A stretch of 64,000 bases of DNA from a virus. Its lineage: Duplodnaviria; Heunggongvirae; Uroviricota; Caudoviricetes. This document shows positions 30,187 to 45,419 of this stretch, piece by piece. The notes beneath the pieces are model-generated. The model searched no databases and was not told the DNA's origin. It saw only the letters and a list, made by a program, of their open reading frames with translations. Position 1 is the stretch's first letter. Each line of letters opens with the position of its first letter. The position numbers and the translations under genes were made by a program. The stretch lies in IMG/VR virus record IMGVR_UViG_3300018430_000002. The stretch is one strand, 5' to 3'.

Positions 30187-30482
30187 CTTCTGTATATATT
30201 ATATCAAAATTTTTTAGAAAAGTCAACAGAGGGAGCGCTGAAGCGCCTCCCTCTGAGCTTTTTTTAAATATTATATCATAATATTTAAAATTTGTCAAGG
30301 CGGGGCTCCCGCATTCGCGGTAGGCGGGGCCATATGGATAGGCCCAGGGTTTCGGGATTCAAGGTAAAAGGGGCCATATGGTTGCATTCAAGAGAAAATT
30401 TTGCATATAGGGTTGTGGAGCGGAAAACCGGCCGCGCGCGGCCGGGCAAAAATGCAGGATTGAGAAGTCAATCCTGCAAATT

Positions 30483-30695
30483 TCAATCCCCAAACTTAAG
30501 GTGAGTTCCAAAAAGCAGAGTCAAAATGCAACCAATGCCGAAGCAAGGCCACCACATAGGCGAAACGGCAAGCACACCGACTTGAGCCAGAATCCACCAG
30601 ATACCCCACAAGCCCGCGCCATACAAAGCGCCAACCAGAGCGATACCAAAAGCCATGAGAAACAGAGCAATCAGGAAAGCGAAAATAATGTCCAT
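30483..30695 (-). CDS. small membrane protein (2 TM)
   Basis: ORF track 70 aa, hydrophobic. Confidence 0.45.
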   Translation of the reverse strand: MDIIFAFLIALFLMAFGIALVGALYGAGLWGIWWILAQVGVLAVSPMWWPCFGIGCILTLLFGTHLKFGD

Positions 30696-30721
30696 GAAAA
30701 ATCCTCCTTGTGTTTCGTGCC

Positions 30722-31174
30722 TCAGCCCCTGTTAAGGGTGCTGAGGACTTCGGTGATGTGTTCGGGGCAGAACGCCATGCCTGCGAACTTGTCCCATGCG
30801 TTTCGGTTCTTCTCTTCATCATCGAACAGGAAGCCAGAGCCGCAAACCTCATGCTTCGGGGTTCCATAGGGTACGATGTGAATTTCGTCCCAGGTCACGC
30901 TCGGCAGGTGCTTTGCCAGCCATGCGACCTTCGCTTCAGCGATTCGGCGGTCGTATTCTTCGGTGCTGACCTTCGAACACCAAGAGATGATGCCGATGCC
31001 GTAACCATGACGCTGAACGGCGTTGAGCTGTCGTGCCAGAGTGCTCATGCGGAGCATCGGTGCGGCTAGTTCGTAAGGGGTGGTCTGTTCTGCTCGGAGT
31101 GCTTCAAGCCATCCTTCTACTGCGTACAGGTCTGCGATAGTGCCATCCATGTCGAACCAAATCATCATCTTCAT
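30722..31174 (-). CDS. HAD-family 5'(3')-deoxyribonucleotidase-like phosphatase
   Basis: ORF track 150 aa. N-terminal FDMDGTIADLY motif I. Confidence 0.55.
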   Translation of the reverse strand: MKMMIWFDMDGTIADLYAVEGWLEALRAEQTTPYELAAPMLRMSTLARQLNAVQRHGYGIGIISWCSKVSTEEYDRRIAEAKVAWLAKHLPSVTWDEIHIVPYGTPKHEVCGSGFLFDDEEKNRNAWDKFAGMAFCPEHITEVLSTLNRG

Positions 31175-31247
31175 AAGTTTTAGTCTCCTTTGTTTTTCTT
31201 GTATTTATTATACCATTCTTTTTATCGTTTGTCAAGTTAAGGATTTG

Positions 31248-31451
31248 TTAAAGAATGTCAACACCCTGCCAGTCGGTAATGGTAAAATTGTAAAGGTCGG
31301 GATGTTTGTCGAGGAACTTGTGCATTGCTTCTTCCTTGTTTACGGCAAGCACATAGATTTTGTCGGTGTAGGTCCAGTGGGGATACGTTTCACGCTCACG
31401 CAGAACAGAGAACTCATACAGGGTCTTTTCGTGTGCCATCATCATCTTCAT
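31248..31451 (-). CDS. hypothetical protein
   Basis: ORF track 67 aa. Class II promoter at 31460-31510. Confidence 0.45.
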   Translation of the reverse strand: MKMMMAHEKTLYEFSVLRERETYPHWTYTDKIYVLAVNKEEAMHKFLDKHPDLYNFTITDWQGVDIL

Positions 31452-31523
31452 TGTTATTACCTCCTCTTGATGTATCCATTATACCACAGGGTCAGGGGTT
31501 TGTCAACCCCTTTTGCCCTGCTT

Positions 31524-31664
31524 TTTAGAATTTTTTTTCTGTTCGTCTCGGCACATCTGGACGAATGCCAGAACCATACCCACGCCCAAGAGAATCAAGA
31601 ACTTCGGAGCGAATGCGCCCCACACAAAACCAGCCATCATCAGTACTACAGAAATCATTGCCAT
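31524..31664 (-). CDS. small single-TM protein (47 aa)
   Basis: Hand translation MAMISVVLMMAGFVWGAFAPKFLILLGVGMVLAFVQMCRDEQKKNSK. The 31525..31734 track ORF, in another frame, looks spurious. Confidence 0.3.
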
Positions 31665-31897
31665 TTGTTTCAGCCCCTTTCGTTGATACTATTATAACAC
31701 TTTCGGGAACGCAAAGCAACGACATCAAAAGCACGAAAATGCGACAAAATTATGCAAATCTCCAAAAAATCGCAAAAACCGCTCGTGGCGACCAGGCACG
31801 AGCGGCCAAATCAATAAAAATTGTTAAATTTTCGTGAAAATTGTTAATTTTTCTTCATTTTTCTATGTAAAATCCTCGTAAAATGTGTGTAAAATAA

Positions 31898-31926
31898 AAA
31901 AAGCCGGATTTTCCGGCTTTTTTCTT
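31898..31926. terminator. bidirectional intrinsic terminator
   Basis: A7-GCCGGA-tttt-CCGGC-T6. Confidence 0.5.
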
Positions 31927-32381
31927 TACTTGGCCGCCTTCGGCGGGCGGTGCAGGGTCAACTGCACCGTGTAGTAGTTCCCGCCGATGTGGAAATCGAC
32001 CTTCTGTTCGGGGTTCGTGACCTCGACCTGTTCGGCGTTGGCTTCAAGCATTGCCCTCAGCCATTCAATGACCATGCGCTTTTCCTCGTTGGGCTTGCGC
32101 GGCGCGCGCTTCTTGGCGGCTCCGTCCATGGAGTAGTTCGCAGGCTTTTTCTTGGCCTTGACCTTTTCGGCTCCGCTTGCCTTGGCCTTGGCGGTCAGTT
32201 CCTCGACCTGCTGGGCGGCATCTTCGGTGTCCTCGATGAAGGTCGCTTCGGCGAAGTCCCTGGGGTAGCCCTGCGCCATGTAGTCGTTGATGATTGCCAT
32301 TGCATCCTGCTTGGCTTCGGATTCGGTCACGCCCATCTGCTTGGCGTACGCCTTGACTGCTTCGTTAAGATTCACAAGCAT
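31926..32381 (-). CDS. hypothetical protein, C-terminus paralogous to 42335..42721
   Basis: ORF track 151 aa. KPNEEKRMVIEWL...VDFHIGGNYYTVQLTLHRPPKAAK versus KPNEDKRLIIDCL...IDFHLNGVHYSVTLTAHRPPKGKA. Confidence 0.5.
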   Translation of the reverse strand: MLVNLNEAVKAYAKQMGVTESEAKQDAMAIINDYMAQGYPRDFAEATFIEDTEDAAQQVEELTAKAKASGAEKVKAKKKPANYSMDGAAKKRAPRKPNEEKRMVIEWLRAMLEANAEQVEVTNPEQKVDFHIGGNYYTVQLTLHRPPKAAK

Positions 32382-32845
32382 CAGCTCCTTTCGACACTAT
32401 AAGTATAGCACTTTTTGGTCGGGTTGTCAACACATTCACAGAGATTTAACATTCCCATCAAGTGCATCGGGCCATCGTAAATCGGGATCTGTTCGGGCAG
32501 GCGGTTGAAGGTGAAACGGTCGGTCGGCACCCACGTTACGCCGGGCATCTTGCGGAGTTCGCTTCGGGTCATGTCCTCAACCTGATATTCGCCGACCTGA
32601 TTATCAAACTCCAGCAGAGCCAGCACTCGGATGCTCTTGTAATTGTTCTGATAGTCGGGCTTCTTCAGTCGCTTCCACAAGTCATTTGCCGTGCCGATCT
32701 TCAGGTAGTTGCGGCCTTCCCAGTCGCGGAGCATGAACACGTAAAACCAGCTATGTTCCTTGGGGATTCGGGGAAAATCAAAGTCGAAGGGTTCAGAGGA
32801 GCCATTCCATGCGGTCACTACGTTGCAGGTGAAGTTCTTAGCCAT
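32381..32845 (-). CDS. GIY-YIG-like nuclease domain protein
   Basis: ORF track 154 aa. YVFMLRDWEGRNYLKIGTANDLWKRLK resembles the GIY-YIG motif. Confidence 0.4.
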   Translation of the reverse strand: MAKNFTCNVVTAWNGSSEPFDFDFPRIPKEHSWFYVFMLRDWEGRNYLKIGTANDLWKRLKKPDYQNNYKSIRVLALLEFDNQVGEYQVEDMTRSELRKMPGVTWVPTDRFTFNRLPEQIPIYDGPMHLMGMLNLCECVDNPTKKCYTYSVERS

Positions 32846-32942
32846 TTTGTCGAGTTCCTTTCGTTTCGTTCAATAACATTATACAGCAGGTCGGGCAGGA
32901 AGTCAAGTTAAGTGTTTGTTAATCCCCCTGAGGGGGCGGCGC

Positions 32943-33362
32943 TTACTGCGCCGCCTTGAAATACGCCTTGCGCTTTTCCTCAGTTCGGATTACAGCCCCA
33001 TCAAGCATGGAGCGGAGCAGGCTTGCAACCTTCTGGCTGGACTTGAACTTCTTCATCAGTTCAGGACAGGCTTCCATGAGTTCGGAAACCGTTACAGCCT
33101 TGCCAACGCTTCGAAGTGCTTCCAGCACTTCCTCTGCATCAGCCTTGGCAGAAACCTGCTTGGCGGTCGGCTTCTTCGGAGCCTGAGCCTTCTTGTCAAG
33201 CTGTTCGATCATCTTGGTGAGCTTTTCCACGATGTCGTCAGCGGAGTAGGTCGTGGTAGTCTTAGTGCCATCCTTGGCGGTGGTCACATGATCGAAGGTG
33301 AAGTCGGGGGACAGAGCTTCGATAGCAGCGGACAGAGCGATACGATTGGTGATGTTAGTCAT
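32943..33362 (-). CDS. hypothetical protein (duplicate copy A)
   Basis: ORF track 139 aa. About 60 percent identical to 34048..34452 over the C-terminal 90 aa. Confidence 0.5.
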   Translation of the reverse strand: MTNITNRIALSAAIEALSPDFTFDHVTTAKDGTKTTTTYSADDIVEKLTKMIEQLDKKAQAPKKPTAKQVSAKADAEEVLEALRSVGKAVTVSELMEACPELMKKFKSSQKVASLLRSMLDGAVIRTEEKRKAYFKAAQ

Positions 33363-33552
33363 GGTGTTTCCTTTCTCTCGTGGGTTTGGTAGGGTTTTCC
33401 TTCCCTTGATGTATTCATTATACCACCGAAGTGGTAGAATGTCAAGTTAAGAGTTTGTTAACTCGGCTCGGGGCTTCCGAAGTGCTTGCCCCTCTTGATG
33501 TATCCATTATAGCACAGTGTGCGGTGGATGTCAAGTTAAGAGTTTGTTAAGT

Positions 33553-33694
33553 GAGGGAAGTGGGATTCGAACCCACGGTTCCGATTCTGCTGGCGTCTTA
33601 ACCTACTGGACTACCCGATCTAACCAGAGGGGGATGGGACTCGAACCCATGGTTCCAGACAGAGGGCGTCTTTACCAACTGGACTATTCCCTCA
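33553..33694 (-). ncRNA. tandem pair of tRNA-like elements with intact D- and T-arms but non-canonical anticodon arms; outer ends GAGGGAA/TTCCCTC are 7/7 complementary
   Basis: Two units TAGTCCAGT(T/A)GGT(A/T)AAGACGCC ... GGGTTCGA(G/A)TCCCA(T/C). The 17-18 nt between D and T stems do not form an anticodon stem. Confidence 0.4.
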
Positions 33695-34047
33695 CCGACA
33701 TCTATAGTATAGCATACTCGGGCACAGATTGCAATAGGGTTTACAGACTCTTAACAATGAATATTTATACAGGTTTCGGGAATATTTATACACGATGCAT
33801 GATTATACATTTTGATGTATAATTATGCATAGACCCCTGGTATCGCGAACTCCGGTCGTGGCGGATGCTAATGCGCCCGGCCACGACCGGCCAAAACAAC
33901 AGCCCCAGGCGAACACAGGCGCTTGGGGCTGTATATTTATTCAATCTATATTCATCAATCACAGGGCGTCAGCCCGTGGGGTCTTTGTTTCTATTCATGC
34001 AGGATCATTCCCCTTTCGGTTACACCTGGGTTACCCCAGGGCGGTCA

Positions 34048-34452
34048 TCAGACCGCCTTGAAGTAAGCCTTGCGCTTCTCTTCGGTGCGGACGACCTTGC
34101 CGTCCAGCATAGAGCGCAGGAGGGAAGCGACCTTCTGGCTCGACTTAAACTTGGTCATCAGCTCGGGCACAGCTTCCATCAGTTCACTGACGGTCACTGC
34201 CTTGCCGACAGACTTGAGGGCTTCGTAGACCTCTTCGGCTTCGCCGACTGCGGCAAGCTGCTTCGCAGTGGGCTTCTTGGGGGCGGCAGCCTTCTTGTCA
34301 AGCTGCTCGACCATGGCGGTCAGCTTGGCGACTACCTCTGCGGCAGAGTAGGTGAGGGAATCCTCGCCTGCGGTCAGGGTGAAGGATTCAGCGGACTTGG
34401 ACAGGACTTCGATAGCGGTGGACAGAGCAACACGATTAGTCATCTTCAGCAT
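34048..34452 (-). CDS. hypothetical protein (duplicate copy B)
   Basis: ORF track 134 aa. Paralog of 32943..33362. Confidence 0.5.
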   Translation of the reverse strand: MLKMTNRVALSTAIEVLSKSAESFTLTAGEDSLTYSAAEVVAKLTAMVEQLDKKAAAPKKPTAKQLAAVGEAEEVYEALKSVGKAVTVSELMEAVPELMTKFKSSQKVASLLRSMLDGKVVRTEEKRKAYFKAV

Positions 34453-34770
34453 AGTATCATACCTTTCTGGTTTGTGAGGTTTTCCTTCCTCTTTATGTAC
34501 TCATTATACCACATTCCGTGGGGAGTGTCAAGTTAAGGGTTTGTTAATTCGCTTCGCTGGCTCGGAACCGACCATGGTGTGTTGGCCACCCACACCGCAA
34601 GCCCGCTCGGCTCAGCGTCTTGTGTTCCCCTCTTGACACTCTTATTATACCACAGAGTGTAGTGGGTGTCAAGTTAAGGTTTGGTTAACTCGGCGATCCC
34701 CTAGGTGATCGTCGGGAGTGCCTTGCCCTCCTGACATTTATAATTATAGCAGGTTTCGGGCAGAAATACA

Positions 34771-34890
34771 AGTCGGTAAAATCACCAAATTTTCAGCCAA
34801 TTTTTTGTGCATCCTGCTCCTCGCGGAAACTCGGCTCGCGCGCGAGCACACGCGCCCGAGCGCGAGCCGCTAAAAAAAGAGGGCTTGCGC
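34771..34890. repeat. intergenic ~110-bp repeat family (copies at 34771-34890, 36541-36676, 38481-38625): AT-rich UP-like segment + CCTGCT..TGnGAAAnaCCGCT + GC-rich hairpin + terminator
   Basis: Alignable blocks ttttgtatatcctgctgcgttgtgaaataccgctcg / tttgtataccctgctctattgcgaaacaccgctgg / ttttgtgcatcctgctcctcgcggaaactcggctcg. Confidence 0.4.
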
Positions 34891-34895
34891 CCTCT

Positions 34896-35156
34896 TTATT
34901 CCTCCATGGTGTCGATGTCGCTCAGCATCTTCTGAATCAGCTGGACACGAGCATCCTTCGGCATCGTTTTGTATTTGTCTGCGATACGCTCATAGCTCAG
35001 AGGTTCGGTCATGTAGGGCTTCAACACCAAGCCATCACCATCGACATACATTTCCAGTGCATCACCTTCGCGCAGGTTGAGATTTCTACGGATTTCCTTC
35101 GGGATTACAATGCGGCCAAGTTCATCAAGGCGTCTTACGATTCCAGTTGCTCTCAT
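34896..35156 (-). CDS. AbrB/MazE/SpoVT-family transcriptional regulator
   Basis: ORF track 86 aa. N-terminal GIVRRLDELGRIVIPKEIRRNLNLREGDALE swapped-hairpin motif. Terminator at 34862-34890. Confidence 0.6.
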   Translation of the reverse strand: MRATGIVRRLDELGRIVIPKEIRRNLNLREGDALEMYVDGDGLVLKPYMTEPLSYERIADKYKTMPKDARVQLIQKMLSDIDTMEE

Positions 35157-35185
35157 AATGTTTTATTTCCTTTCCTTTTGATGTA

Positions 35186-35232
35186 TTTATTATACCATGA
35201 AAGGGCTTGATTGTCAAGCCCTTTCTTTGTTA
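35186..35232 (-). promoter_or_regulatory. class II promoter, representative copy: TTGACA embedded in a gene-specific palindrome, TGnTATAAT -10, upstream GTTAACAAAC/TTAAC motif
   Basis: About 25 copies in front of nearly every small minus-strand gene between 31200 and 43310. Spacer often contains TCCCGAAACC. Confidence 0.55.
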
Positions 35233-35236
35233 AGTT

Positions 35237-35704
35237 TTAGAGCAGGTTTTCAAGGTAGGCATTCAGGGCATCAAAATCTACCTTGTAGTAATTGCGCTTG
35301 GCTTCAATGGTAGCCAGTCGGTCGGGCAGGAAGTTCACGCTGCGGTTGCGGTAGTCCTCATTGCGAAAGTCGAAGCACTTCATCAGCGGGCCAGAAAACA
35401 GGACTTCGTCGGTCTTGTAGCGGTCTACGACTTCGCCCCATTCTACATTGACTTCCTTGGGGAAGGTTTCTACCCTTGCGATTACCACGAAACCATCTTC
35501 ACGCAGGTTCTGGAGCGAATAGGGCTTGAACTCAACATCCAGCCAGCGGAAACTGTGGGAAGTACCTGCGGCGACAGCATTGGCAAGTGCTTCGGCTCGG
35601 CGTGCGTCCTCAAACTGCTGGGTGGTGAACTCGACGGGCAGGGAAGCGAACAGGTTGCGAGTGGCGTTGATGCGAGCGATGTTGATGTTGGTCATCTTCT
35701 TCAT
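35237..35704 (-). CDS. hypothetical protein
   Basis: ORF track 155 aa. Class II promoter at 35715-35770. Confidence 0.5.
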   Translation of the reverse strand: MKKMTNINIARINATRNLFASLPVEFTTQQFEDARRAEALANAVAAGTSHSFRWLDVEFKPYSLQNLREDGFVVIARVETFPKEVNVEWGEVVDRYKTDEVLFSGPLMKCFDFRNEDYRNRSVNFLPDRLATIEAKRNYYKVDFDALNAYLENLL

Positions 35705-35802
35705 GGTGTTTTTCCTTTCTCTCTTGGGTTTGTTCAGTGTTGTCCTTCACTTGATGTATTTATTATAACATGGTTGGTCGGGTTTGTCAAGTTAAGGATT
35801 TG

Positions 35803-36027
35803 TTAAATCCTTAACTTGCTCGGGTCAATTTCCACGACTTCATCGGTACAAAGTACCGAAACCTTGCGCAGATAAAACGGGACGTAAATCGGCAGTTTAG
35901 CATACCACTTGTGGCAATTCTTCGACCATTCACGCCCGAGATACCAACGACCGAAAAGGTGAATGGGGTTGTATCCATGTTCCCGCAGACGCTCGATGCG
36001 GTACTCATCGCTAATTGCTCTTGACAT
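35803..36027 (-). CDS. hypothetical protein
   Basis: ORF track 74 aa. Confidence 0.4.
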   Translation of the reverse strand: MSRAISDEYRIERLREHGYNPIHLFGRWYLGREWSKNCHKWYAKLPIYVPFYLRKVSVLCTDEVVEIDPSKLRI

Positions 36028-36029
36028 GT

Positions 36030-36230
36030 TTACTTCTCCTTTACATAGTAGTTAATGTAGGCCGTCCAGCCTGCACCGATGGTCTTGCCTTCGACTCTGC
36101 CCTCATCAATGAGTTCGTGAACGTATTCCAGACAGGACACATGCCAGCAGTTACAGTAGTGACCGATGTCGCGGAGACGGATGCCATGCTTGCCAGACTT
36201 CTTGATTGCTTCGAAAACCTTTTCTTTCAT
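36030..36230 (-). CDS. small putative DNA-binding protein
   Basis: Track ORF trimmed to MKEKVFEAIKKSGKHGIRLRDI, downstream of the -10 at about 36252. Confidence 0.35.
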   Translation of the reverse strand: MKEKVFEAIKKSGKHGIRLRDIGHYCNCWHVSCLEYVHELIDEGRVEGKTIGAGWTAYINYYVKEK

Positions 36231-36307
36231 GTTGTTTCCCTCTCTTTCTGAATCTATTATACCATCTTGGAGGGGTTTTGTCAACCCCTCCGCAGGTTAA
36301 CTGTTTG

Positions 36308-36490
36308 TTAACCCCAGATGGTGTCCTCGCTCTTGCGAGTCTGGCATACGCCAAGGTAGATGTTGTTGTCGTCTTCCATGTAGGTGACGGTGGGGCCATC
36401 CCATTCAAAAGTGGCCTTCATGCGACGGGCGAGGCTCTTGCCTTCTTCGGTGTTGGGAATGGTGTAAACGGTGGTCTCAGTAAACTTCAT
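36308..36490 (-). CDS. hypothetical protein
   Basis: ORF track 60 aa. Confidence 0.35.
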   Translation of the reverse strand: MKFTETTVYTIPNTEEGKSLARRMKATFEWDGPTVTYMEDDNNIYLGVCQTRKSEDTIWG

Positions 36491-36673
36491 GGTGTTGTCC
36501 TCCTCTTGTTGATGTATACATTATAACAGGTTTCGGGATATTTGTCAAGAGGCAAAAATGCACAAAATGCAGAAAATTTTTTTGTATATCCTGCTGCGTT
36601 GTGAAATACCGCTCGTTGCGGATGCTGAGGCGTCGGCAACGCGCGGACGGAAAAAAAGAGCCTTTCGGCTCTT

Positions 36674-36874
36674 TTACTTCAAGAGGTTGGAGCAATCGAT
36701 TTCACAGGTGGTATTTGCCCATACCAGGGTTTTGCCGCAAATCGGGCAGGTGGTATAGATTGATCCCTGAGAGGTTCGGTGCTCCTCGTTGTGAGTTGCA
36801 ATATATTCGGAAGTGCAGATCGGGCAGGTGTACTTGTAGCCATGCAGGCGTCCATCTTTAATAATGATAATCAC
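36674..36874 (-). CDS. zinc-ribbon protein (CPIC...CPIC), GTG start
   Basis: Track ORF trimmed below the promoter. RBS GAGAGGAAAA. Confidence 0.4.
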   Translation of the reverse strand: MIIIIKDGRLHGYKYTCPICTSEYIATHNEEHRTSQGSIYTTCPICGKTLVWANTTCEIDCSNLLK

Positions 36875-36953
36875 AGTGTTTTCCTCTCTTTCATTTGATG
36901 TATTTATTATAGCATAGGTTCGGCGATTTGTCAAGGGGTTTCAGAAACTTTTT

Positions 36954-37502
36954 TTATTCCTGCCCTTCGGGGTGAAGGGCAGGGATGTCAAGGAAGGAAC
37001 GGCTTACGATGTAGTCAGCCATGTGAACAGCTCGGTCGATGTTGGTGAAGGGCTTATCGTCCTTTTCGGTGGTCCACTGTCCCATGTGGCTCTTGATTGC
37101 CATGCCGATGAAGGGGGAGAAGGTCAAACCAGCTTCGGCACAGAAGGTTTCCCAGTTGATGGCGGCGTTCTTTGCGTGGTCGGCGTACTGGCTCTTGTCC
37201 ATCTCTGCGCCCATGCCGTACTTGCAGGTGTCGTGCATGATTGCGGCGGCGTAGGCGTAATCCTTGTAATCTTCGGGCATGTAGGCGTAACTGCTGAGCT
37301 TCAAAAGCTCGTCCAGCATCATCACAACCGCCTTGGTGTGTCGTACCAGACCGCCTTCGCCCTGCGAGAACTTGGGGTGATACTTGCCGGAACTGGATGC
37401 GCCGATCTGGAAAAAGTAGGCAGGAACGGCAGTGTTCATGTACTCGGTGACTGCGTTGCGAAGGGTTTCATTCTTGATGCGTGCGATTTCGTTGGTGAAC
37501 AT
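36954..37502 (-). CDS. HD-domain phosphohydrolase
   Basis: ORF track 189 aa. GKYH...GGLVRHT...IMHDTCK (H...HD metal ligands). Confidence 0.55.
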   Translation of the reverse strand: MFTNEIARIKNETLRNAVTEYMNTAVPAYFFQIGASSSGKYHPKFSQGEGGLVRHTKAVVMMLDELLKLSSYAYMPEDYKDYAYAAAIMHDTCKYGMGAEMDKSQYADHAKNAAINWETFCAEAGLTFSPFIGMAIKSHMGQWTTEKDDKPFTNIDRAVHMADYIVSRSFLDIPALHPEGQE

Positions 37503-37582
37503 GTGGTGTTTCCTCTCTTTCATTTGATGTATTCATTATACCACAGGGGCTTGGACTTGTCAAGTCCCTGTTGTGTTAAGAT

Positions 37583-37822
37583 TTAGCGACACTTGGCGCC
37601 GCACTTTACATAGGCGTTAACCTTGCGTCCCTCGAAATACTCTTCGGCGGTGATTTCCTTGGCAAACATCGGCATCTTGCCGTGCTTCATGCCAGGCATT
37701 TGCTTAGCAAAGTCCATTGCGTCAATCATGCTCTTTGCCTTTACATAGAAGCAACAGTCCAGACGGTAGTACTTGCGACCAGTGTGGCCACGTTCCATGG
37801 ATACCTTGTAATACTTCAACAT
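37583..37822 (-). CDS. hypothetical protein
   Basis: Track ORF trimmed to MLKYYKV. Confidence 0.35.
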   Translation of the reverse strand: MLKYYKVSMERGHTGRKYYRLDCCFYVKAKSMIDAMDFAKQMPGMKHGKMPMFAKEITAEEYFEGRKVNAYVKCGAKCR

Positions 37823-37878
37823 TGTTTTGTTCTCCTCTCTTGTTTGTAAGTCTATTATACCACGGTCAGAAGGGTTTG

Positions 37879-38226
37879 TCAACCCTTCCAACCGTTAAGG
37901 TTTTGTTGCGTTTCTGTTACATCGGGCACCCACACATCAACAGTGACTTCGGCGCTCCAGATGTTGTCATTCTCTGCCAGACTATCACGGGCATTATTGT
38001 CGCAGGTATCGTGCCAGCGCTCCAGTGCTTCCTGCCGTTCATCGGCGGTCATGTCAAACAGTTCTCGGATAGTGTATTCAGCGGCCAGCCAGTCATTGAA
38101 TTCCCATTCATCTTCGAGAAGTTCTTCGATCTTCTCTTCCAGTCGTGCCTGATACTCTTCCTCGTTGAGAACTTCCTGATTGTTGTAGTCCACGTAGACA
38201 GTGATGTTCCTCTTGACGTATGCCAT
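37879..38226 (-). CDS. acidic hypothetical protein
   Basis: ORF track 115 aa. Confidence 0.45.
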   Translation of the reverse strand: MAYVKRNITVYVDYNNQEVLNEEEYQARLEEKIEELLEDEWEFNDWLAAEYTIRELFDMTADERQEALERWHDTCDNNARDSLAENDNIWSAEVTVDVWVPDVTETQQNLNGWKG

Positions 38227-38299
38227 GTTGTTTGCTCTCCTTTGCTTTTCTTGTCTTTATTATACCATGCAAGATGGTGGAAGTCAAGTTAAGTGTTTG

Positions 38300-38433
38300 T
38301 TAACCAATCGGCCAGATTTCTTCTTCGCCATCCATCCAGACACGCTTGCACAGTGTGCCATCTTCGTTGGTGTAATCATCGTACCAGATACAGCCCACCT
38401 GCTGGCTATCAATCCAAGTCCACTTGTTTTCCA
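38300..38433 (-). CDS. small protein (44 aa)
   Basis: MENKWTWIDSQQVGCIWYDDYTNEDGTLCKRVWMDGEEEIWPIG, downstream of the class II promoter. Confidence 0.3.
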
Positions 38434-38606
38434 TTGCGTTCCCCTCACTTTCTGTATACATTATAGCACGTTTCGGGACATTTGTCAACAGGTAAAAATA
38501 CACAAATTTTGCACGAGATTTTTGTATACCCTGCTCTATTGCGAAACACCGCTGGCTGTCGAAGCAAAGCGCCCCGTCAGCCAGCGGGCCAAAGAAAAGC
38601 AGGTGC

Positions 38607-38858
38607 TCAGCGCTTGAGCACCCAGTCGGGGAGGTTCTCCCAGAGTCGGGAGAGGTGGCAGGTGACCACCGTGGAGCGTTTCCACTCCGTATCGGCCCCA
38701 TCCCAGAAGTACTGGTAGTGGTCGACGGTGACCATGTCACCGTGGAAGGAGACCTTGATGGTCTCGTGGCTGGCCAGCCAAGAGCCGCAGCCAGCGAAGA
38801 GGTAACCGGGACGGCTTTCGAAGCCGTAGGCAGCGAGGGCGTTGATGATGTTCTTCAT
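38607..38858 (-). CDS. hypothetical protein
   Basis: ORF track 83 aa. Class II promoter at 38880-38925. Confidence 0.4.
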   Translation of the reverse strand: MKNIINALAAYGFESRPGYLFAGCGSWLASHETIKVSFHGDMVTVDHYQYFWDGADTEWKRSTVVTCHLSRLWENLPDWVLKR

Positions 38859-38955
38859 GGTGTGTACCTCCTTGTTTGTTCCCTTTCGTTGATACTATTA
38901 TAACACGGTTTCGGCAGTTTGTCAAGCCCTTTTTGAGGGGGAGGAAGAATTTTTT

Positions 38956-39141
38956 TTATTCTTCCTCGTAGGCCCCTTCGATGTAGGGGACCACCTTGAA
39001 CTCGGTGGTCTCCCCACAGGCCTTGGCACCTCTGCGGTACCAGCCGGCGGACTTAACCGCCTTGACGTGGGAGGGGGTCCGGAGACCAGTGGACTTCCAC
39101 TGGGCGGAAGAGGAACGGCGGAACAGGATTTCGTAGAACAT
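38956..39141 (-). CDS. hypothetical protein
   Basis: Track ORF trimmed to MFYEILF. Confidence 0.35.
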   Translation of the reverse strand: MFYEILFRRSSSAQWKSTGLRTPSHVKAVKSAGWYRRGAKACGETTEFKVVPYIEGAYEEE

Positions 39142-39387
39142 GGGGTGTACCTCCTTCATCAGGGCTCTTGTCCCTTGCTGTTGTATACATTATACCATAG
39201 CCCCACCCACATGTCAAGCACTTTACAAACACTTAACATAGGTTTCGGGATTGCCCATGACCTGCTGTGCGCCAGCTTTTCCATTATTAATTTCTTAACA
39301 CAATCTTAACGCGCGATTTCGGCGACCCCTCGAACCTCTTCGGCTATTACGATTATAACACAAAAAGGGGTTGTTGTCAACCCCTTT

Positions 39388-39858
39388 TTACAAATTTTTT
39401 GATTCAGATACAAAGTATTTTGCATCGTAACTCTGTAACAGTTTCTTAACATTCAGGCTGTCCTGCTGAGTCGGGCAGTAGAAGTTAAACAGGAAATACT
39501 TTTCGATGTCTACGTAATTGTAAGTCAGTCCGTAGTATTTACAATCTTCTAACATCTGCGGAGCCTGCTCGGCAGGGATGGTGACTTCTACTTTCCAGAG
39601 TTTATCTTTTCTTGCCTTTTCCTCAAAGTACTTGACAACCCACACGCCCACCAGATTACACAGGGCAACGATGCCAGCTTTCCACCACAGGGGCAGTTCG
39701 CACAGCATGTAAACTGTTACGATTGTGTAAAGTCCGTAGGCCACGGCGTTGACAACTGCGGCGGCAGTCTTGCCGCATTTGATGGTTGCGATGCTCTTGA
39801 TGGTCTGAATGATTACGTTGGCGATGTTCAAAAGGATGAAGGTTAAAAGCAGGTTCAT
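39388..39858 (-). CDS. membrane protein (3-4 TM)
   Basis: ORF track 156 aa, hydrophobic N-terminal half. Confidence 0.45.
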   Translation of the reverse strand: MNLLLTFILLNIANVIIQTIKSIATIKCGKTAAAVVNAVAYGLYTIVTVYMLCELPLWWKAGIVALCNLVGVWVVKYFEEKARKDKLWKVEVTIPAEQAPQMLEDCKYYGLTYNYVDIEKYFLFNFYCPTQQDSLNVKKLLQSYDAKYFVSESKNL

Positions 39859-40086
39859 TCAGTTGTCCTCCTCTGTTTCGTAGTGAGTCAAGATGCCAGC
39901 ATCATCGTAAAAAGCCTGGACGAACCAGCCATCCACCCAGATATCGAGTTCCGTTGAGTCTGCTTCATGACCGATTGTATACCATTCTACAGCTTCGCTC
40001 AAATACTCTACATTATTTTTACGGAGCCAGCCGACCATCTTGCTGTGGTTCTTCTTTTCGATTACCTCTTTGACTTTTTCGAACAT
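39859..40086 (-). CDS. hypothetical protein
   Basis: ORF track 75 aa. Confidence 0.4.
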   Translation of the reverse strand: MFEKVKEVIEKKNHSKMVGWLRKNNVEYLSEAVEWYTIGHEADSTELDIWVDGWFVQAFYDDAGILTHYETEEDN

Positions 40087-40148
40087 TGTGTGTTTCCTCT
40101 CTTTCTTTTGTTGTATTTATTATACCACAGGAAGGGAATTAAGTCAAG

Positions 40149-40484
40149 TTAATTCCCTGTTACGTCGTAGGTGGTGAACTCAGTGCCGAACCAGTCTTGC
40201 TTGACAGTTGCTTCAATTTCAATCAGGTCGCCGATGCTGTATCGTGCATAGGTGCTTGCGCTTACTCGGTCAGCACCTGCTTCATCACCATCACACCAAA
40301 AGATGTGATATTTGGGAGCACTGCGATACTTTTCGGTAACTGCCTTGTCGGTGATTTCAGCGTGGAAGGAATAAGTCTCAACCTCATGGATGCCGATAGT
40401 GAACCATGCCAGAAAAAAGATTGCGATGGCAATGAAGGTGAAAAAGATGATGTCGCCGATGGTTCTGAAGATCTTGTTTTTCAT
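40149..40484 (-). CDS. membrane-anchored hypothetical protein
   Basis: ORF track 111 aa. N-terminal TM segment. Confidence 0.45.
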   Translation of the reverse strand: MKNKIFRTIGDIIFFTFIAIAIFFLAWFTIGIHEVETYSFHAEITDKAVTEKYRSAPKYHIFWCDGDEAGADRVSASTYARYSIGDLIEIEATVKQDWFGTEFTTYDVTGN

Positions 40485-40552
40485 GATGTGTTTCCTCTCT
40501 CTCGTTTCTTTCTGTATACATTATACCATGGAGAAGGGGTTTTGTCAACCCC

Positions 40553-40909
40553 TTATTTGAAAAATTCTCCACAATCTTTGCGACGCTTACCACACTTGAA
40601 AGCGCACAGGCCATGCTCCATGAGTTCTGCATAGAAGGGATCATCATAAGAAACCTTGAACCATTCGGTTTTCTTACCGTCTATGCAAGCGGTTACCATC
40701 TCATAGCCACGAGCAACGATTTCAGCATGGAACATCTCTTCAACCTTGCGCTTGCTGGATACTCGGGTTTTTACATGACTGATGCAACGAACTTCGGGGT
40801 TGTGCGTGGTGTAGGCGTAAATGCGGGTTTCCATATCTTTGGCAAAGCCTGCCTTGAAGGCGGCGTGGTCTCTCTTCTCATCCATCATCAGGTAAACATT
40901 GTACATCAT
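40553..40909 (-). CDS. hypothetical protein (possible T5orf172/GIY-YIG-like)
   Basis: Track ORF trimmed to MMYNVYLMMDEKRD. IYAYTTHNPE motif. Confidence 0.35.
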   Translation of the reverse strand: MMYNVYLMMDEKRDHAAFKAGFAKDMETRIYAYTTHNPEVRCISHVKTRVSSKRKVEEMFHAEIVARGYEMVTACIDGKKTEWFKVSYDDPFYAELMEHGLCAFKCGKRRKDCGEFFK

Positions 40910-41026
40910 TGTTAGTCTCTCCTTTGCTTTGGGCTCTTGCCCTTTCGTTGATACTATTATAACACAGGTGCACGCACTTGTCAACCCTTTTTTGAAAAAA
41001 ACTTTTTTTTATTTTTTTTCAAAAAC

Positions 41027-41056
41027 CTATTGACAAACAGGCTTTGCTGTGGTATA
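41027..41056 (+). promoter_or_regulatory. plus-strand TTGACA-N17-TGgTATACT promoter facing an ORF-poor ~350-nt region
   Basis: Consensus boxes. Downstream 41060-41420 has no convincing ORF and ends in GC hairpin 41371-41412. Confidence 0.4.
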
Positions 41057-41427
41057 CTATTATCAACAGGTGAGGGGAACACACCAAGCCGAGAAACCAA
41101 GCGCGCAGGAAAGATTGGCGAAGCACCCAGTTCCCACGACCACCGCCCAGAAACAGGTAGTTTAGCTAGGTTAGAACATCCCGACAGGGAAGAAGCCGTT
41201 CAAATCGGCCCTAGGGCATAGGGGTCAGCCCCATTCCATACATCCACGGCGGCGAGATTCCGCCCGCGCAAGCGAAGACGAGAGTGGCTCTGTTTTGGGA
41301 TGGGGCTTAATTTATTTTTAACAAAGATTTTACATGTTAATTTTCTGTAAGGTATAGTGTTGCGCGAATCAGGGCCGCGCACGGGTGTTGAGGCGCCCGT
41401 GCGCGGCCCTGCGAAAAAAGAGGCAGC

Positions 41428-41573
41428 TTACGCTACCTCTACTTTAATGGGATGCCACCCTTGATTGACCAATGCGTTACGCAGGTCGGCAGCCTGCCAT
41501 GCCTGCCATGCCTGTGCCTCGCTGGTGTAAGGTTCGATTCCTCTCAGTCCACTACGACTCATGATGTACCACA
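41428..41573 (-). CDS. small protein
   Basis: Trimmed to MWYIMSRSGL. Confidence 0.3.
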
Positions 41574-41657
41574 TTGTGTTGTTCTCCTCTCTTGTTGTTG
41601 TACTTATTATACCACAGTGAGAGCCTGTTGTCAAGCCCTCACTGTGTTAAGTGTTTG

Positions 41658-41879
41658 TTACCATGCCATCAGTCTCAGCTGACGAGCTTCTTGTACGGAA
41701 TAGGTGCGCTTGTGGATGAATGCTTTCTTCAGGCCTACGACTTCATCACTGTGCATTTCTTCTTTGGCGATTGCTTTTTTCAAGCTTTCCAAAGAACCAC
41801 GAGTGATAATAGAACGCCATTCACCGTATTCTCCATTGTTGTAGTGATCGTATTTGGTAAGAGTTGCTGCGTACATCAT
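41658..41879 (-). CDS. hypothetical protein
   Basis: Trimmed to MMYAATLTKY. Confidence 0.35.
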   Translation of the reverse strand: MMYAATLTKYDHYNNGEYGEWRSIITRGSLESLKKAIAKEEMHSDEVVGLKKAFIHKRTYSVQEARQLRLMAW

Positions 41880-41964
41880 TGTTGTATTCCCCTCTCGTTT
41901 CTTTCTGTATTTATTATACCACGGAAAGGCTTGTCTGTCAAGCCTTTCCTTTGTTAAGTGTTTG

Positions 41965-42225
41965 TTACGCATTGAGTGCGAGCTTCTTTAAGAACTGCGT
42001 GTAGGTCAGGGAGAAGAAACGCTTGCCGTTGATGTAGTCGGCGATCATGGCGATCTGTTCCTCGCTGTAGGTCAGGCCCCAGAAGTCACACCAGTTGGCG
42101 AGCTTCACAGTCAGGCTGCCCTTGCGAACTTTGTTCACATCGCTCTTCATGTCATCCAGAGCAAAGGGATTGTTGAAATACTTAACCTGCTTGATGAGGT
42201 AGACTGCGATGTTGTTCTTATCCAT
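41965..42225 (-). CDS. hypothetical protein
   Basis: ORF track 86 aa. Confidence 0.4.
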   Translation of the reverse strand: MDKNNIAVYLIKQVKYFNNPFALDDMKSDVNKVRKGSLTVKLANWCDFWGLTYSEEQIAMIADYINGKRFFSLTYTQFLKKLALNA

Positions 42226-42334
42226 TGTTTTTCTCTCCTTTGTTTTTCCCTTTCGTTGTACTTATTATACCATGGGTTTCGGGATTTGTCAATAGGTTTT
42301 TGAAAATTTTTTTGAGAAATTTTTAGGGAAAGGC

Positions 42335-42721
42335 TCAAGCCTTTCCCTTTGGGGGTCGATGTGCGGTGAGCGTCACGCTGTAGTGTACGCCGTTCAGGTG
42401 GAAGTCGATCTGCCGTTCGGGATTGATAACCTCGCAGTTATCGAAGTCGGCAAGCGTGTCTTTCAGGCAGTCGATGATCAGGCGCTTGTCTTCATTGGGT
42501 TTGCGCTCTCTTGTGCGCTTGCGCCCGTAGGCATCTACGCTGTGTTCGCCTGTGCGGAGGGAGCCATTTTCCTTTGCGCCCTTTGCCATCTCTTTCATCT
42601 CGGGGGTTTCAATGTCCTCACGATCTTCCAGAATAGCCTGTTCCGCTTCCTCTCTTGTGTCGCCCAGGTTCATGAATGCCTGGATCTGTCTTTCCTCTTT
42701 AGGGGTGAATTTGATAGCCAT
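42335..42721 (-). CDS. hypothetical protein, paralog of the 31926..32381 C-terminus
   Basis: Trimmed to MAIKFTPKEE. Confidence 0.45.
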   Translation of the reverse strand: MAIKFTPKEERQIQAFMNLGDTREEAEQAILEDREDIETPEMKEMAKGAKENGSLRTGEHSVDAYGRKRTRERKPNEDKRLIIDCLKDTLADFDNCEVINPERQIDFHLNGVHYSVTLTAHRPPKGKA

Positions 42722-42768
42722 GTTATCCCTTCCTTTCAATAACATTATACCACAGACAGAGGGGCTTG

Positions 42769-43053
42769 TCAAGCCCCTTTCTGTAGTTTTTTAATCTTTT
42801 TATCTACGTTATTTCTCTTGTGTACAAGTCTGTTATACTTGCGTTGTCTGCGCTTGCGCTTGGCCTCTTCTCTGCGTGCTCTCCATACTCTTGCCCACTC
42901 CATAGGAATAGACTTTACTACATAGCACACATTGCTGTTCTTGTTGCGTGCGTTGTACACCTCGCATACAGCGTAGGCATTGCGCTGAGTGAGGAAGACG
43001 CCTGCCCTAGTGAGGCAGCAGTCTGCCCCTGTGTCCTTTACTACAAGATACAT
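42769..43053 (-). CDS. basic hypothetical protein
   Basis: Trimmed to MYLVVKDTGADCCL. Confidence 0.35.
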   Translation of the reverse strand: MYLVVKDTGADCCLTRAGVFLTQRNAYAVCEVYNARNKNSNVCYVVKSIPMEWARVWRARREEAKRKRRQRKYNRLVHKRNNVDKKIKKLQKGA

Positions 43054-43073
43054 TGTGTATCGCTTCCTTTCTG

Positions 43074-43241
43074 TTAGCGCAGAGCCAATGCCTGCGCTTC
43101 GGTCATGCGGATAACAGTGAAGTGTTCGCCGCTCTTGCTCATTCGACGATAGCCCCACTTCCTAGCAAGGCGCTCAGTGTAGTGCATAGAGTAGCGGATG
43201 CCGCGCGGAGTGGTGTAAGGTACTACGTAAACAGTCTTCAT
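43074..43241 (-). CDS. small basic protein
   Basis: Trimmed to MKTVYVVPYT. Class II promoter at 43265-43310. Confidence 0.3.
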   Translation of the reverse strand: MKTVYVVPYTTPRGIRYSMHYTERLARKWGYRRMSKSGEHFTVIRMTEAQALALR

Positions 43242-43299
43242 GGTGTTGTTCCCCTCTCGTTTGTTTCTGTATACATTATACACCACAGGGGCGCACTTG

Positions 43300-43420
43300 T
43301 CAATGAGTTATTTGTTAAGAATGTGTTAACAATATTTAACAAACATTTAACATTTCGGGAAAGTAGGGGTTTGGTCAGTTTGTTAAGTTTTTGTTAAATT
43401 TTTGTTAACAACATGTTTTC
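43300..43420. repeat. cluster of at least 8 TTGTTAAC/TTAACA motifs (same element found upstream of class II -35 boxes)
   Basis: atttgttaagaatgtgttaacaatatttaacaaacatttaacattt ... gtttgttaagtttttgttaaatttttgttaacaac. Confidence 0.45.
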
Positions 43421-43573
43421 TGTGGAAATCTGGGGCTACGATGGCCGCCTGCGGGCGGGCGTTTTTCAGAGGCCGACAATACATTGTATATTTTTTCTCG
43501 AATAATAGAGGGGGGGTATGTTTCGGGATAAAAATTATTTTAACATTGAATTTACATTATGCCTGGTCCATTC

Positions 43574-44283
43574 TCACACTAAATCATTTTTCGTTTTCAG
43601 ATCACGGGCTTTTTCCAAAATCTTAATTAACGTCAAATCACCATACTCGTTGTGAGGAATGCGCACCAATGGCACTCCAATGTCCATACACCACTCGGTT
43701 TTAATTTTGTCTCTTTCTTGCTGATGTACAAAAGTTTCTTCTCCACCCCAAATTTTCACTGGCGCGGCATGCTGATAACCATCGAATTCAATGACAAAAG
43801 CTAATCCTTCTTTTCCAAATACAGCAAAATCAAAAGCGTATCTCTGTAATCCTTCAAAACGATATTGTTCTTGAAAATTCAATCCACCCGCTTGAAGCAA
43901 TTCACGTATTTTAATTTCGCCTCTCGATGAATGATGACAAGCTACACAAGTATTCTGTCCACTCTTTAGATGATCTGCCTGAATCTGTTTTTCTAAGCCA
44001 CATCTCACGCAACGACATTTCCAATAACATACATGACTACGATTAATATATCCGATTCGCTCTAATACTTCGAAATCGCCATATTTATCTCCCACTTCTA
44101 CTTTCTTGCGTTTGCGCAGTCCAAGAGAACAAGGTTTACAGGAAATTGCCGTTTGACCATTAAGCTTATCAATACGTACACTTACAGTATTACCACAAAG
44201 TTCACATTTACATAAAAAATACTTATTTCCATACTAGGCCGTTTTCACTGGATCCGGCCCTAACACTGTTAAAAATCCACTTT
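43574..44283 (-). CDS. zinc-ribbon + PD-(D/E)XK (Vsr/DUF559-like) nuclease with one in-frame TAG
   Basis: Hand translation MVGKKSGFLTVLGPDPVKTA(TAG)YGNKYFLCKCELCGNTVSV... continuing into the track ORF ...AFVIEFDGYQH.... Confidence 0.4.
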
Positions 44284-44285
44284 TC

Positions 44286-44687
44286 TTACCAACCATTACA
44301 ACCTCCAAATTCTGGACACCACATTACACATTGTCCGTCCGGTCCTTCACATCCAAGAGCCTCAATCGGCAAATCATGGTTTTTGCAAAATTTCTCATAC
44401 TCGCCCCATCCGCAATTCCATAATACATGCTTCGAAACAAATTCATTTTCGGCACGTCTATAAGCATCCTTCTCTTCTTGTGTAGAAGGACGAATATTCG
44501 GGTCTTTTGGCTCATGATACTTAATAGTCGTAGAGCCATCTGGATTTGTTGTCCATGTAGTAATATTCTTATACCACTCCGAATCTTTCTTAAAAGGATT
44601 TTCAAGAGTAGTAGTTCTGTCCCATTCTTCTCTAGCATGAAATACTACCGCATTCACGCCACTAACTACAATAGGTTTAAAAGACAT
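44286..44687 (-). CDS. hypothetical protein
   Basis: ORF track 133 aa. Confidence 0.45.
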   Translation of the reverse strand: MSFKPIVVSGVNAVVFHAREEWDRTTTLENPFKKDSEWYKNITTWTTNPDGSTTIKYHEPKDPNIRPSTQEEKDAYRRAENEFVSKHVLWNCGWGEYEKFCKNHDLPIEALGCEGPDGQCVMWCPEFGGCNGW

Positions 44688-45054
44688 CTATATCGTAATC
44701 CCCTCTCACGGCAACCCAATCGCCGACATTAACATGCATTGTCTGCCACTCGTGAAGCCGAACTTCTCTCCACTTGCCGTCTCGCTCAATTCGAATATAC
44801 CAATAGCCCGGCTTATCAACCATTCTGTGGCCATCTGCCATGGTGATAATTTCTCTGGGGTGATACTGCTCCAAGACAACCTCACCTGTAGACAGGCGTG
44901 GGTCATAATTGGATAAATCACCTATCGCAAAAGTAAGGAGAGTGGCTAACATAATCGCCACGACAACCATAAAAACTGGTACAAAAATTTTACTTGTACG
45001 GCTCATTCTATGCGTATCCTCCTTGGTAGTCCTGCCAGATACCTTCGTCGCCAA
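44677..45054 (-). CDS. membrane-anchored hypothetical protein
   Basis: ORF track 125 aa. Confidence 0.45.
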   Translation of the reverse strand: MATKVSGRTTKEDTHRMSRTSKIFVPVFMVVVAIMLATLLTFAIGDLSNYDPRLSTGEVVLEQYHPREIITMADGHRMVDKPGYWYIRIERDGKWREVRLHEWQTMHVNVGDWVAVRGDYDIDVF

Positions 45055-45346: not shown

Positions 45347-45390
45347 TTTCTAAATATATTATATCAAAATTTTTTAAAATTTTCAAATTG

Positions 45391-45419
45391 AAGATTCTTG
45401 ACACGAGAAAAAATTTTTG
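45391..45419 (+). promoter_or_regulatory. class III (plus-strand) promoter TTGACAnnGAtAAAAAATTTTTGtTATAAT; other copies at 27395-27423 and 60707-60735
   Basis: Three near-identical copies including the 17-nt spacer. Each is followed by a GGAGG-type RBS and a plus-strand gene. Confidence 0.55.

Follow-up and report, generated by a model that had tools for sequence, protein, structure and literature searches.

Why would a phage place a promoter of almost the same design before nearly every gene in a long run of small genes, and what else do the spacers that carry these promoters do? The question is raised by the virus record IMGVR_UViG_3300018430_000002 from IMG/VR, of which we analyzed a stretch of 64,000 nucleotides (nt), referred to here as the window. 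On its minus strand, positions 30722..43303 form an array of ~12.6 kb, with ~29 small open reading frames (ORFs) of 44-182 aa, 28 promoters of the sigma-70/sigmaA type and eight terminator/promoter modules that divide it. We consider it likely that this region is an early or host-takeover array of orphan genes (ORFans) in a large uncultivated phage, built from exchangeable cassettes that resemble the promoter-early stem-loops (PeSLs) of T4-type phages. The best reading of the source is a phage of ~166-184 kb found in samples of ruminant or other gut, with a host that very probably uses sigmaA and Shine-Dalgarno signals of the Firmicutes type and probably belongs to the Clostridia.

Perfect TTGACA-N17-TATAAT sites number 28 in the whole window, against 0.02 expected from dinucleotide shuffles, and 24 of the 28 fall within 31207-43303 on the minus strand. 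Nearly all the perfect promoters of the array carry the TG of an extended -10. With one mismatch allowed there are 28 promoters in 31.2-43.3 kb, and promoter-like sites number 50 against 17.5 ± 3.4 in shuffles. The spacer from the stop codon of one gene to the ATG of the next is ~85 nt long. The start region in it, aATACAtcAA, is conserved, and a strong Shine-Dalgarno site serves the ORF behind the promoter. The array has a G+C content of 45-52%, compared with 31-45% in the flanks, and the AT skew of the plus strand is strongly negative across positions 30000-44000. A preliminary description of the region, made from the sequence alone, had suggested shuffled AT-rich sequence as the control that might refute its motifs; the motifs pass this test with ease, and, the array not being AT-rich, its premise does not apply.

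The features around the promoters fall into overlapping subtypes. In type A, TTAACAAACnCTTAAC directly abuts TTGAC(A/T), which is the case at 8-9 promoters. The type A boundaries, all on the minus strand, are 38259..38303 (TTAACAAACACTTAAC abutting TTGACT-N17-TATAAT, with the upstream stop within the motif), 35762..35806 (TTAACAAATCCTTAAC abutting TTGACA), 34644..34688 (TTAACCAAACCTTAAC, driving a ~100-nt non-coding unit), 34503..34547 (TTAACAAACCCTTAAC), 33506..33550 (TTAACAAACTCTTAAC, before a short non-coding unit), 33417..33461 (again TTAACAAACTCTTAAC), 32878..32922 (TTAACAAACACTTAAC abutting TTGACT) and 31207..31251 (TTAACAAATCCTTAAC). In type B, found at 11 of the 28 promoters, a stable stem-loop carries the -35 close to its top, and its 3' arm fills the spacer. 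In type C, CCCGAAAC occupies -24 to -17 in the spacer of ~8 promoters, namely those at 42292, 38488 and 36548, degenerate versions at 38925 and 36934, and three with a poor -35 near 34760, 33780 and 31707. The one at 42264..42292 also has an AT-rich upstream tract, while the degenerate spacers read CCGAAACC (38897..38925) and CGCCGAACC (36906..36934). According to the preliminary description, about 25 consecutive genes each had the perfect promoter, a -35 inside a palindrome and an upstream TTAAC motif, and the spacers frequently contained CCCGAAA(C). The cassette architecture is real and 24 perfect sites do lie in 31.2-43.3 kb, but four genes (starts 43053, 39858, 36027 and 32381) are joined to the preceding one, and no single gene design carries all three features throughout. 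The example palindrome, AAGGGCTTGACAATCAAGCCCTT, was located at 35199-35225, whereas only 11 of the 28 promoters have the -35 in a stable hairpin, and CCCGAAA(C) marks a subclass rather than the spacers in general.

Further promoters lie on this strand. The promoter at 40956..40984 has an A/T-tract upstream and drives the gene 40909..40553, that at 39189..39217 precedes the gene 39141..38956 and has inverted GTTAA copies upstream, and a TTGACA-N17-TATACT promoter at 32402..32430 lies in the 3' end of the gene 32845..32381, which precedes the joined gene starting at 32381. Several array promoters drive non-coding or tRNA-like units. The window also has a second promoter class, with 17 copies and an AT-rich, near-invariant spacer and start, TTGA[AC][AT]-aWttcaaaaaattWTGA-TATAAT-atatatgtaaggttgag. 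These AT-rich-spacer promoters stand at 1727-30226 on the minus strand and at 27402, 45398 and 60699 on the plus strand, and precede tRNA clusters and larger genes.

The upstream motif is far above chance. With at most two mismatches allowed, TTAACAAACNCTTAAC is found 18 times (0.24 expected), never outside 31.2-43.4 kb, and TTAACA-N5-TTAAC 13 times (0.07 expected). Some 500-630 promoters of related contigs show three preferred positions of TTAAC. In a pool of 492 non-redundant ones, its start lies at -5 (277), -16 (196) or -27 (27) relative to that of TTGACA and hardly elsewhere, which gives an 11-bp phase. The upstream TT.ACA positions hold 1.2-1.7 bits of information, and the C positions 1.3-1.7 bits, as compared with 0.1-0.3 bits in the 17-nt spacer. 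Within the window, TTAAC is absent from all 17 AT-rich-spacer promoters, while of the 30 others 9 have it at -5 and 14 at -16; the separation between promoter classes is weaker in the wider family. In six hairpin promoters (41941, 41634, 37882, 37563, 36284 and 35217) there is a single TTAAC at -16, exactly 11 bp further upstream. We propose that TTAAC is a promoter element of which the reader would contact a single DNA face, at about -41, -52 and -62.

What might read it? It is possible, if somewhat unlikely, that TTAAC is a factor-independent UP-like or curved-DNA element with no dedicated regulator at all. The C-terminal domains of the alpha subunit of host RNA polymerase (alpha-CTDs) would then contact it near -41 and -52, or near -62 where a stem-loop is present. 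The known alpha-CTD subsites coincide with -40..-36, -51..-47 and -62..-58, which are the positions of TTAAC, the strict phasing would fit, and UP elements and TTAAC would have in common both the location at about -40 to -60 and the dependence on the helical face. The module promoters moreover have phased T-tracts at the corresponding place, and AT-rich upstream regions are found in PeSLs and other phage early promoters (PMC2839356). What would set TTAAC apart from generic A/T-rich UP elements is the conservation of its C's, for which a minor-groove reading of A/T has no need, and its partial restriction to one promoter class in the window; arrays of up to 14 copies, some inverted, also count against a plain UP element. 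We think that a sequence-specific protein is the likelier reader.

The repeats are similar to the PHO box of Bacillus, in which four TT(A/T/C)ACA-like hexamers follow one another with an 11-bp periodicity (PMC11870197). It could thus be argued that TTAAC mimics a Firmicutes PHO box, or another site of the OmpR/PhoB type, and links early transcription to a two-component system of the host, and the enrichment of TTAACA-N5-TTAAC(T) as well as the 3 + 4 phased copies at the first promoter of the array, P1, fit this idea. However, four or more copies are present only at P1, and the ordinary cassettes have just two hexamers adjoining a perfect -35, as against four repeats per PHO promoter. Pho promoters usually lack a good -35. 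Moreover, the exact 21-mer TTAACAAACNCTTAACTTGAC does not behave as a host motif would. It is found in 35 IMG/VR stretches, with source contigs of up to 184 kb, and in every case N17 comes next, and after it TATAAT, TATACT or TACAAT. In a set that represents 185,579 species by one genome each, only 9 stretches contain it, all of them multi-copy contigs of gut metagenome-assembled genomes (MAGs) labeled Acutalibacteraceae, Clostridia or Bacteroidales. Being confined there to stretches that look phage-derived, it is a motif of the phage group and not of a host regulon, and a literature search on the motif strings returned only unrelated primers. The likeness to the PHO box is one of sequence only, and we regard such a link as highly improbable.

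The densest cluster of repeats lies at the head of the array. On the minus strand, 43314..43412 holds a phased field of seven TTAA[AC] pentamers, five TTAAC and two TTAAA, at spacings of 11, 11, 36, 11, 10 and 11 nt; the order is three TTAAC, a 36-nt gap with CCCGAAA, then TTAAA, TTAAA, TTAAC and TTAAC. The preliminary description saw here a promoterless pile-up that might serve for titration or control. In fact the field ends 15 nt upstream of P1 (43275..43303), a perfect TTGACA-N17-TATAAT without TG, which drives the genes 43241..43074 and 43053..42769, and it is the upstream region of this first array promoter. The homologous place in the related loci L038 and L042 has a like build; in L042, a 103-kb ENA contig, a 21-nt deletion drops two repeats of the field with the phase retained. 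The related loci have 27 such fields, each of 6-14 TTAAC copies with spacings of 11, 22 or 33 nt, some copies being inverted. In L038, positions 16000-16760 hold at least 14 GTTAA/TTAAC copies, five of them consecutive at 11-bp steps, in an iteron-like field between the end of the array and AT-rich-spacer promoters, for which the array end in the window has no equivalent.

The regulator that the preliminary description put forward was the AbrB-like protein of 86 aa encoded at 34896..35156 (minus strand), with the cluster at 43.3-43.4 kb as its titration region. The information-bearing C's of the TTAAC motif, its 11-bp phase and its 6-14-copy arrays do make a sequence-specific reader plausible. 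The protein has a genuine AbrB/MazE (SpoVT-AbrB) DNA-binding domain (PF04014, E = 2e-15), its gene lies inside the array and is present in L042, and the TTAAC field is real and conserved. On the other hand, in L037, an 18-kb JGI contig that is collinear with the window, the same slot holds an unrelated 79-aa ORF, no homologue is present in the 18 kb of array in L038, and the motifs are retained in both. A homologue was found in only 2 of the 35 motif-bearing IMG/VR loci (L004 and L015), but all the loci compared are partial genomes, and the gene may lie elsewhere in these phages. PHROGs places the protein with antitoxins. As one of the swappable cassettes, the AbrB-like gene makes a poor candidate, and it is very doubtful indeed that its product is the dedicated regulator.

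Two winged-helix paralogues on the minus strand, 34048..34452 (134 aa) and 32943..33362 (139 aa), are a better candidate family for reading TTAAC. Their genes have the best motif copies and lie behind three or four stacked promoters, those next to them being the type A promoters 34503..34547 and 33417..33461. The family has 274 homologues, some on contigs of 166-177 kb, and its relatives are spread over the whole phage group. The AlphaFold2 (AF2) model of the 139-aa protein has a mean predicted local distance difference test score (pLDDT) of 90.7 and a helix-helix-helix-strand-strand order at the C-terminus, and Foldseek matched it to the Fur/Zur, SmtB, MecI and AspA regulators with probability ~1 and E-values of 0.02-0.2. 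A profile search of the PDB with the family gave nothing significant, so the fold assignment rests on the AF2 model together with Foldseek matches of weak E-value. We would suggest, tentatively and as an unlikely though attractive case, that the TTAAC repeats are operators for an abundant DNA-binding protein of the phage, with these paralogues as the best candidates; coating of one DNA face at ~20 promoters and at the multi-copy fields would then switch the early regulon as a unit. If so, the cassette system would be a self-contained, portable platform for expression and exchange in Firmicutes phages.

Both winged-helix genes have a conserved 5' leader (34503-34453 and 33417-33363), of which ~100 more copies were found in L001-L035. 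It runs from TATAAT over N8-12 to a 4-5-bp stem, the loop AAGGAAAA, the complement of the stem, aAAACCAGAAAGG, N6-10 and ATG. A stem of 4 bp or more flanks the loop in 93 of the 101 distinct leaders, with 37 different stem sequences, while shuffled controls mostly have 2-3 bp. The leader stands before unrelated proteins, Rfam had no match at the two copies in the window, and a role as translational operator or enhancer is possible.

The stem-loops of type B have minimum free energies of -14 to -26 kcal/mol (z <= -3.5). All those of the array lie on the minus strand. Six of them have TTAAC at -16: at 41913..41968, gTAACAAACACTTAAC, which holds the TAA of the upstream gene, is followed by 11 nt, a -35 in the hairpin 41949-41923 and TGGTATAAT; at 41606..41661, gTAACAAACACTTAAC is followed by a 15-bp hairpin (41646-41613) around the -35 that ends at the TG of the extended -10; at 36256..36311, TTAACAAACAGTTAAC and 11 nt precede a -35 in the hairpin 36291-36269; at 37854..37895, a 15-bp hairpin (37895-37862) encloses the -35, and the upstream gene stops at the TGA of TTGACA; at 37535..37579 there is an inner stem (37567-37553) plus an outer stem; and at 35189..35233, the promoter of the AbrB-like gene, a 12-bp hairpin (35225-35199) encloses the -35. 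At 40119..40158, the hairpin 40158-40133 holds a TTAAC that abuts TTGACT and whose TAA is the upstream stop. The remaining ones are at 42744..42778 (hairpin 42778-42760, the TGA of TTGACA again being the upstream stop), 40520..40554 (hairpin 40554-40534), 39352..39392 (hairpin 39392-39359 and then a T-run, as in a bidirectional terminator, before a non-coding unit) and 31478..31511 (hairpin 31511-31494 plus an outer stem).

Across the family, perfect stems of 6 bp or more overlap the -35 in 83 of 524 promoters, against 26.7 ± 5.8 when the flanks are shuffled. Stem-loops are present at ~13-16% of the family promoters, compared with ~40% in the window. Comparison with L037 and L042 shows compensatory changes in the stems, from C-G to G-C at P41941, a G/C swap at P40548, from G-C to A-T at P37882 and from A-T to G-C at P37563, and P31506 has a new outer stem in this comparison. 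Three wobble pairs in orthologous stems are all G·U on the sense strand, which favors a role in the RNA that arrives from the upstream cassette. The stem-loops over the -35 thus very probably act on the transcript of the upstream gene, as an attenuator, a terminator or a stabilizer of the 3' end. Their preliminary interpretation as terminators or insulators of the upstream gene gains from the compensatory pairing and the sense-strand wobbles but is weakened by the want of a canonical U-tract in most of them. We also considered an antisense role but favor one in the sense RNA; several of the stem-loops score as terminators of the plus strand, but the wobbles pair only on the sense strand.

A second tier of organization is formed by eight copies of a ~150-nt module, which cut the array into units of 1-3 kb. 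A module consists of a canonical terminator, a GC hairpin of 10-16 bp whose stem sequence varies among the copies, phased T-tracts and then a promoter. The copies detailed here (all minus strand) are 41285..41435 (terminator and 16-bp GC hairpin, with a degenerate promoter part), 38450..38625 (intrinsic terminator, long GC hairpin and phased T-tracts, with the promoter 38488-38460 made of TTGACA, CCCGAAAC at -24..-17 and TGcTATAAT), 36510..36680 (terminator, GC hairpin, T-tracts and the CCCGAAAC promoter 36548-36520), 34740..34900 (terminator, GC hairpin, T-tracts, CCCGAAAC and TGcTATAAT with a poor -35, giving a non-coding transcript), 33750..33925 (terminator, GC hairpin, AT palindrome and CCCGAAAC promoter, with two tRNA-like units after it), 31685..31935 (strong terminator, two TTAAC copies, GC hairpin, T-tracts and a CCCGAAAG promoter) and 30265..30420, the last module, where CCCGAAAC and a GC hairpin are fused to the AT-rich-spacer promoters 30298 and 30226 at the end of the array. 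In six modules (41285-41435 through 31685-31935) the second hairpin comes right after the terminator and is 10-16 bp long, very GC-rich and without a T-run; the stems are related but covarying, as in CCGCTCGTG/CACGAGCGG, CGGCTCGCGC/GCGCGAGCCG and CCGGTCGTGGC/GCCACGACCGG.

The relatives bear on the question of what the spacers do besides carrying promoters. Alignment with the window shows both L037 and L042 to be collinear, at 82-93% nucleotide identity. In L037, 17 of the 29 window genes have counterparts at 77% aa identity or more, 4 are alleles at 41-52%, and 8 have given way to unrelated ORFs of another length. Homology breaks off at the codon where the replaced ORF starts or stops. Of the 34 block ends, 33 fall between genes or no more than 20 nt inside the end of an ORF, whereas random placement gave 15.5 such ends on average and at most 26 in 10,000 trials. 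The gene 31451..31248 is 94% identical to its counterpart in L038 but 41% to that in L037, and shared cassettes are ordered differently in L038. Off-diagonal matches show the spacers to be ~75-85% alike over 60-100 nt, which is enough to provide homology for recombination. The 35 IMG/VR loci have 3-27 such promoters on their main strand, most of them at least 10; 7 of the 29 window proteins have homologues among these loci, and 7 of the 29 have none in 41 related loci. We conclude from these alignments that the conserved, promoter-bearing spacers are the likely breakpoints of whole-gene exchange between related phages, which is the chief point that the preliminary description did not see.

It can be asked whether the boundary has any regulatory meaning beyond the core promoter, or persists simply through duplication and recombination of cassettes and through its value as a stop signal. 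The motif together with the TTGA of the -35 (TTAACAAACnCTTAACTTGA), as read from the sequence, holds stops in all three frames (TAA, TAA, TGA), many upstream genes end in the TAA of the motif or the TGA of TTGACA, and the breakpoints do lie in the spacers. Yet the 16-mer is preserved beside a fully randomized 17-nt spacer, in phages with only 40-60% identity between the proteins that they share, and this points to selection rather than recent copying. The 11-bp shift upon insertion of a stem-loop and the phase-keeping 21-nt deletion in L042 argue for a constraint on the helical face, and a boundary with no further regulatory role seems improbable.

The closest known parallel is found in T4-type phages, where PeSLs combine strong sigma70-like promoters with stem-loops that can overlap the -35 and an AT-rich upstream region (PMC2839356), and where they sit before ORFans and mediate modular shuffling (PMC2839356, PMC4122927). 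The array is alike in having a strong sigma70-type promoter in the stop-to-ATG spacer with a Shine-Dalgarno site at its 3' end, a stem-loop that may extend over the -35, an upstream accessory region, dense occurrence before small ORFans, and genes that are replaced or lost between relatives with breakpoints in the cassettes. It differs in its upstream region, which is an 11-bp-phased direct repeat of TTAAC instead of generic AT-rich DNA, in having stem-loops at only ~40% of promoters and a second tier of ~150-nt modules, and in belonging to an unrelated uncultivated group with Firmicutes-type signals. Neither megablast with the region nor tblastn with a 637-aa ORF found a match among 50,697 phage records, an exact look-up of a window protein also came back empty, and the array is hence an analogue of the T4 PeSLs and not a member of their family. 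SPO1's host-takeover module, with 26 small early genes in 12.4 kb, strong promoters and ribosome binding sites and a grouping in operons (PMC6873191), is similar in size (~12 kb with ~26-29 small early-type genes), consensus sigmaA promoters, strong ribosome binding sites and mostly unknown functions, whereas no homology was found and the array has almost one promoter per gene in place of operons. Integron-like cassettes were ruled out because every cassette of the array carries its own promoter; the partial Pfam and PHROGs scans showed no integrase, and no attC search was made.

Considering these findings, a cassette would consist of one small ORF and a conserved stop-to-ATG spacer that carries the upstream element, an extended -10 promoter and a Shine-Dalgarno site. 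The element would be either TTAACAAACnCTTAAC abutting the -35 or a stem-loop around it, often with one TTAAC moved by one helical turn. It can be envisioned that the RNA polymerase of the host fires all the cassettes at once right after infection, that the stem-loops form in the sense RNA of the preceding cassette and attenuate or end it, with the A/U-rich -10 region as a weak hybrid, and that the eight modules divide the array into units of 1-3 kb. The spacers would at the same time supply the homology at which ORFs are exchanged, lost, gained and reordered. Such a system would carry the PeSL principle, by which a single short composite signal serves to express, insulate and shuffle accessory genes, beyond T4-type phages and their Gram-negative hosts to unrelated large gut phages with Firmicutes-type signals. 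It suggests convergent evolution of promoter-bearing cassettes for the turnover of host-takeover genes in large virulent phages. It may also be of practical use, as a compact and well-defined set of very strong promoters and terminators in which a fixed core is combined with free spacers in more than 600 natural variants, and the reader of its sharply defined upstream motif could be identified by simple binding assays.

The motif statistics, the phasing, the covariation of the hairpins and the replacement of genes at spacer breakpoints are observations in their own right. Several points nevertheless weigh against a PeSL-like array in a phage of Clostridia. The labels of binned contigs include Bacteroidales/Bacteroidaceae besides Acutalibacteraceae and Clostridia. 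Early timing, promoter strength and termination are deduced from sequence features, and recombination as the mechanism of exchange from the positions of the breakpoints only. Most -35 stem-loops, having no canonical U-tract, may attenuate, stabilize 3' ends or be processing sites, and several are followed on the opposite strand by TTTGTTAAG and score as terminators there. Nor does such an array account for the jump in G+C from its flanks.

The scanned proteins of the array, from which four of the smallest were left out, are mostly orphans with no significant Pfam or PHROGs family. Besides the AbrB-like protein, recognizable domains are few: an HD domain in 37502..36954, the gene driven by the hairpin promoter 37535..37579, for whose product a search of viral contigs found only a 30% relative; a T5orf172 domain in 40909..40553; and a 5'-3' deoxyribonucleotidase-like protein in 31174..30722, which is driven by the last type A promoter. 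Searches of 30-45 kb with Rfam gave a marginal tRNA match and nothing else. This match (30.6 bits, 33626-33693) falls in one of the two adjacent tRNA-like units at 33560-33693 on the minus strand, each directly upstream of a type A promoter; ARAGORN makes no call on them, and they are kept in L042. On the plus strand, 41030-41310 is an antisense unit with TTGACA-N17-TATACT, ~250 nt without an ORF that contain the T-arm-like GTTCAAATC, and a terminator-like hairpin at 41286-41307. It is kept only in part in L037 and L042. Just upstream of the array, a low-G+C segment (43592-44307) with a DUF2726 (nuclease-like) gene at 43574..44095 is missing from the otherwise collinear L042 and looks like a mobile insertion.

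Elsewhere in the window, ARAGORN found 32 tRNAs, one of them amber-reading (CTA anticodon) at 10744-10836. When TAG is read as sense on the plus strand of 45000-64000, ORFs of at least 200 aa rise from 5 (1641 aa) to 11 (4293 aa), which suggests that part of the genome, possibly the late genes, is TAG-recoded. TAG recoding has been reported for gut phages. The stop codons of the array are TAA (20) and TGA (9), with no TAG, which would fit a translation of the array before any recoding takes effect.

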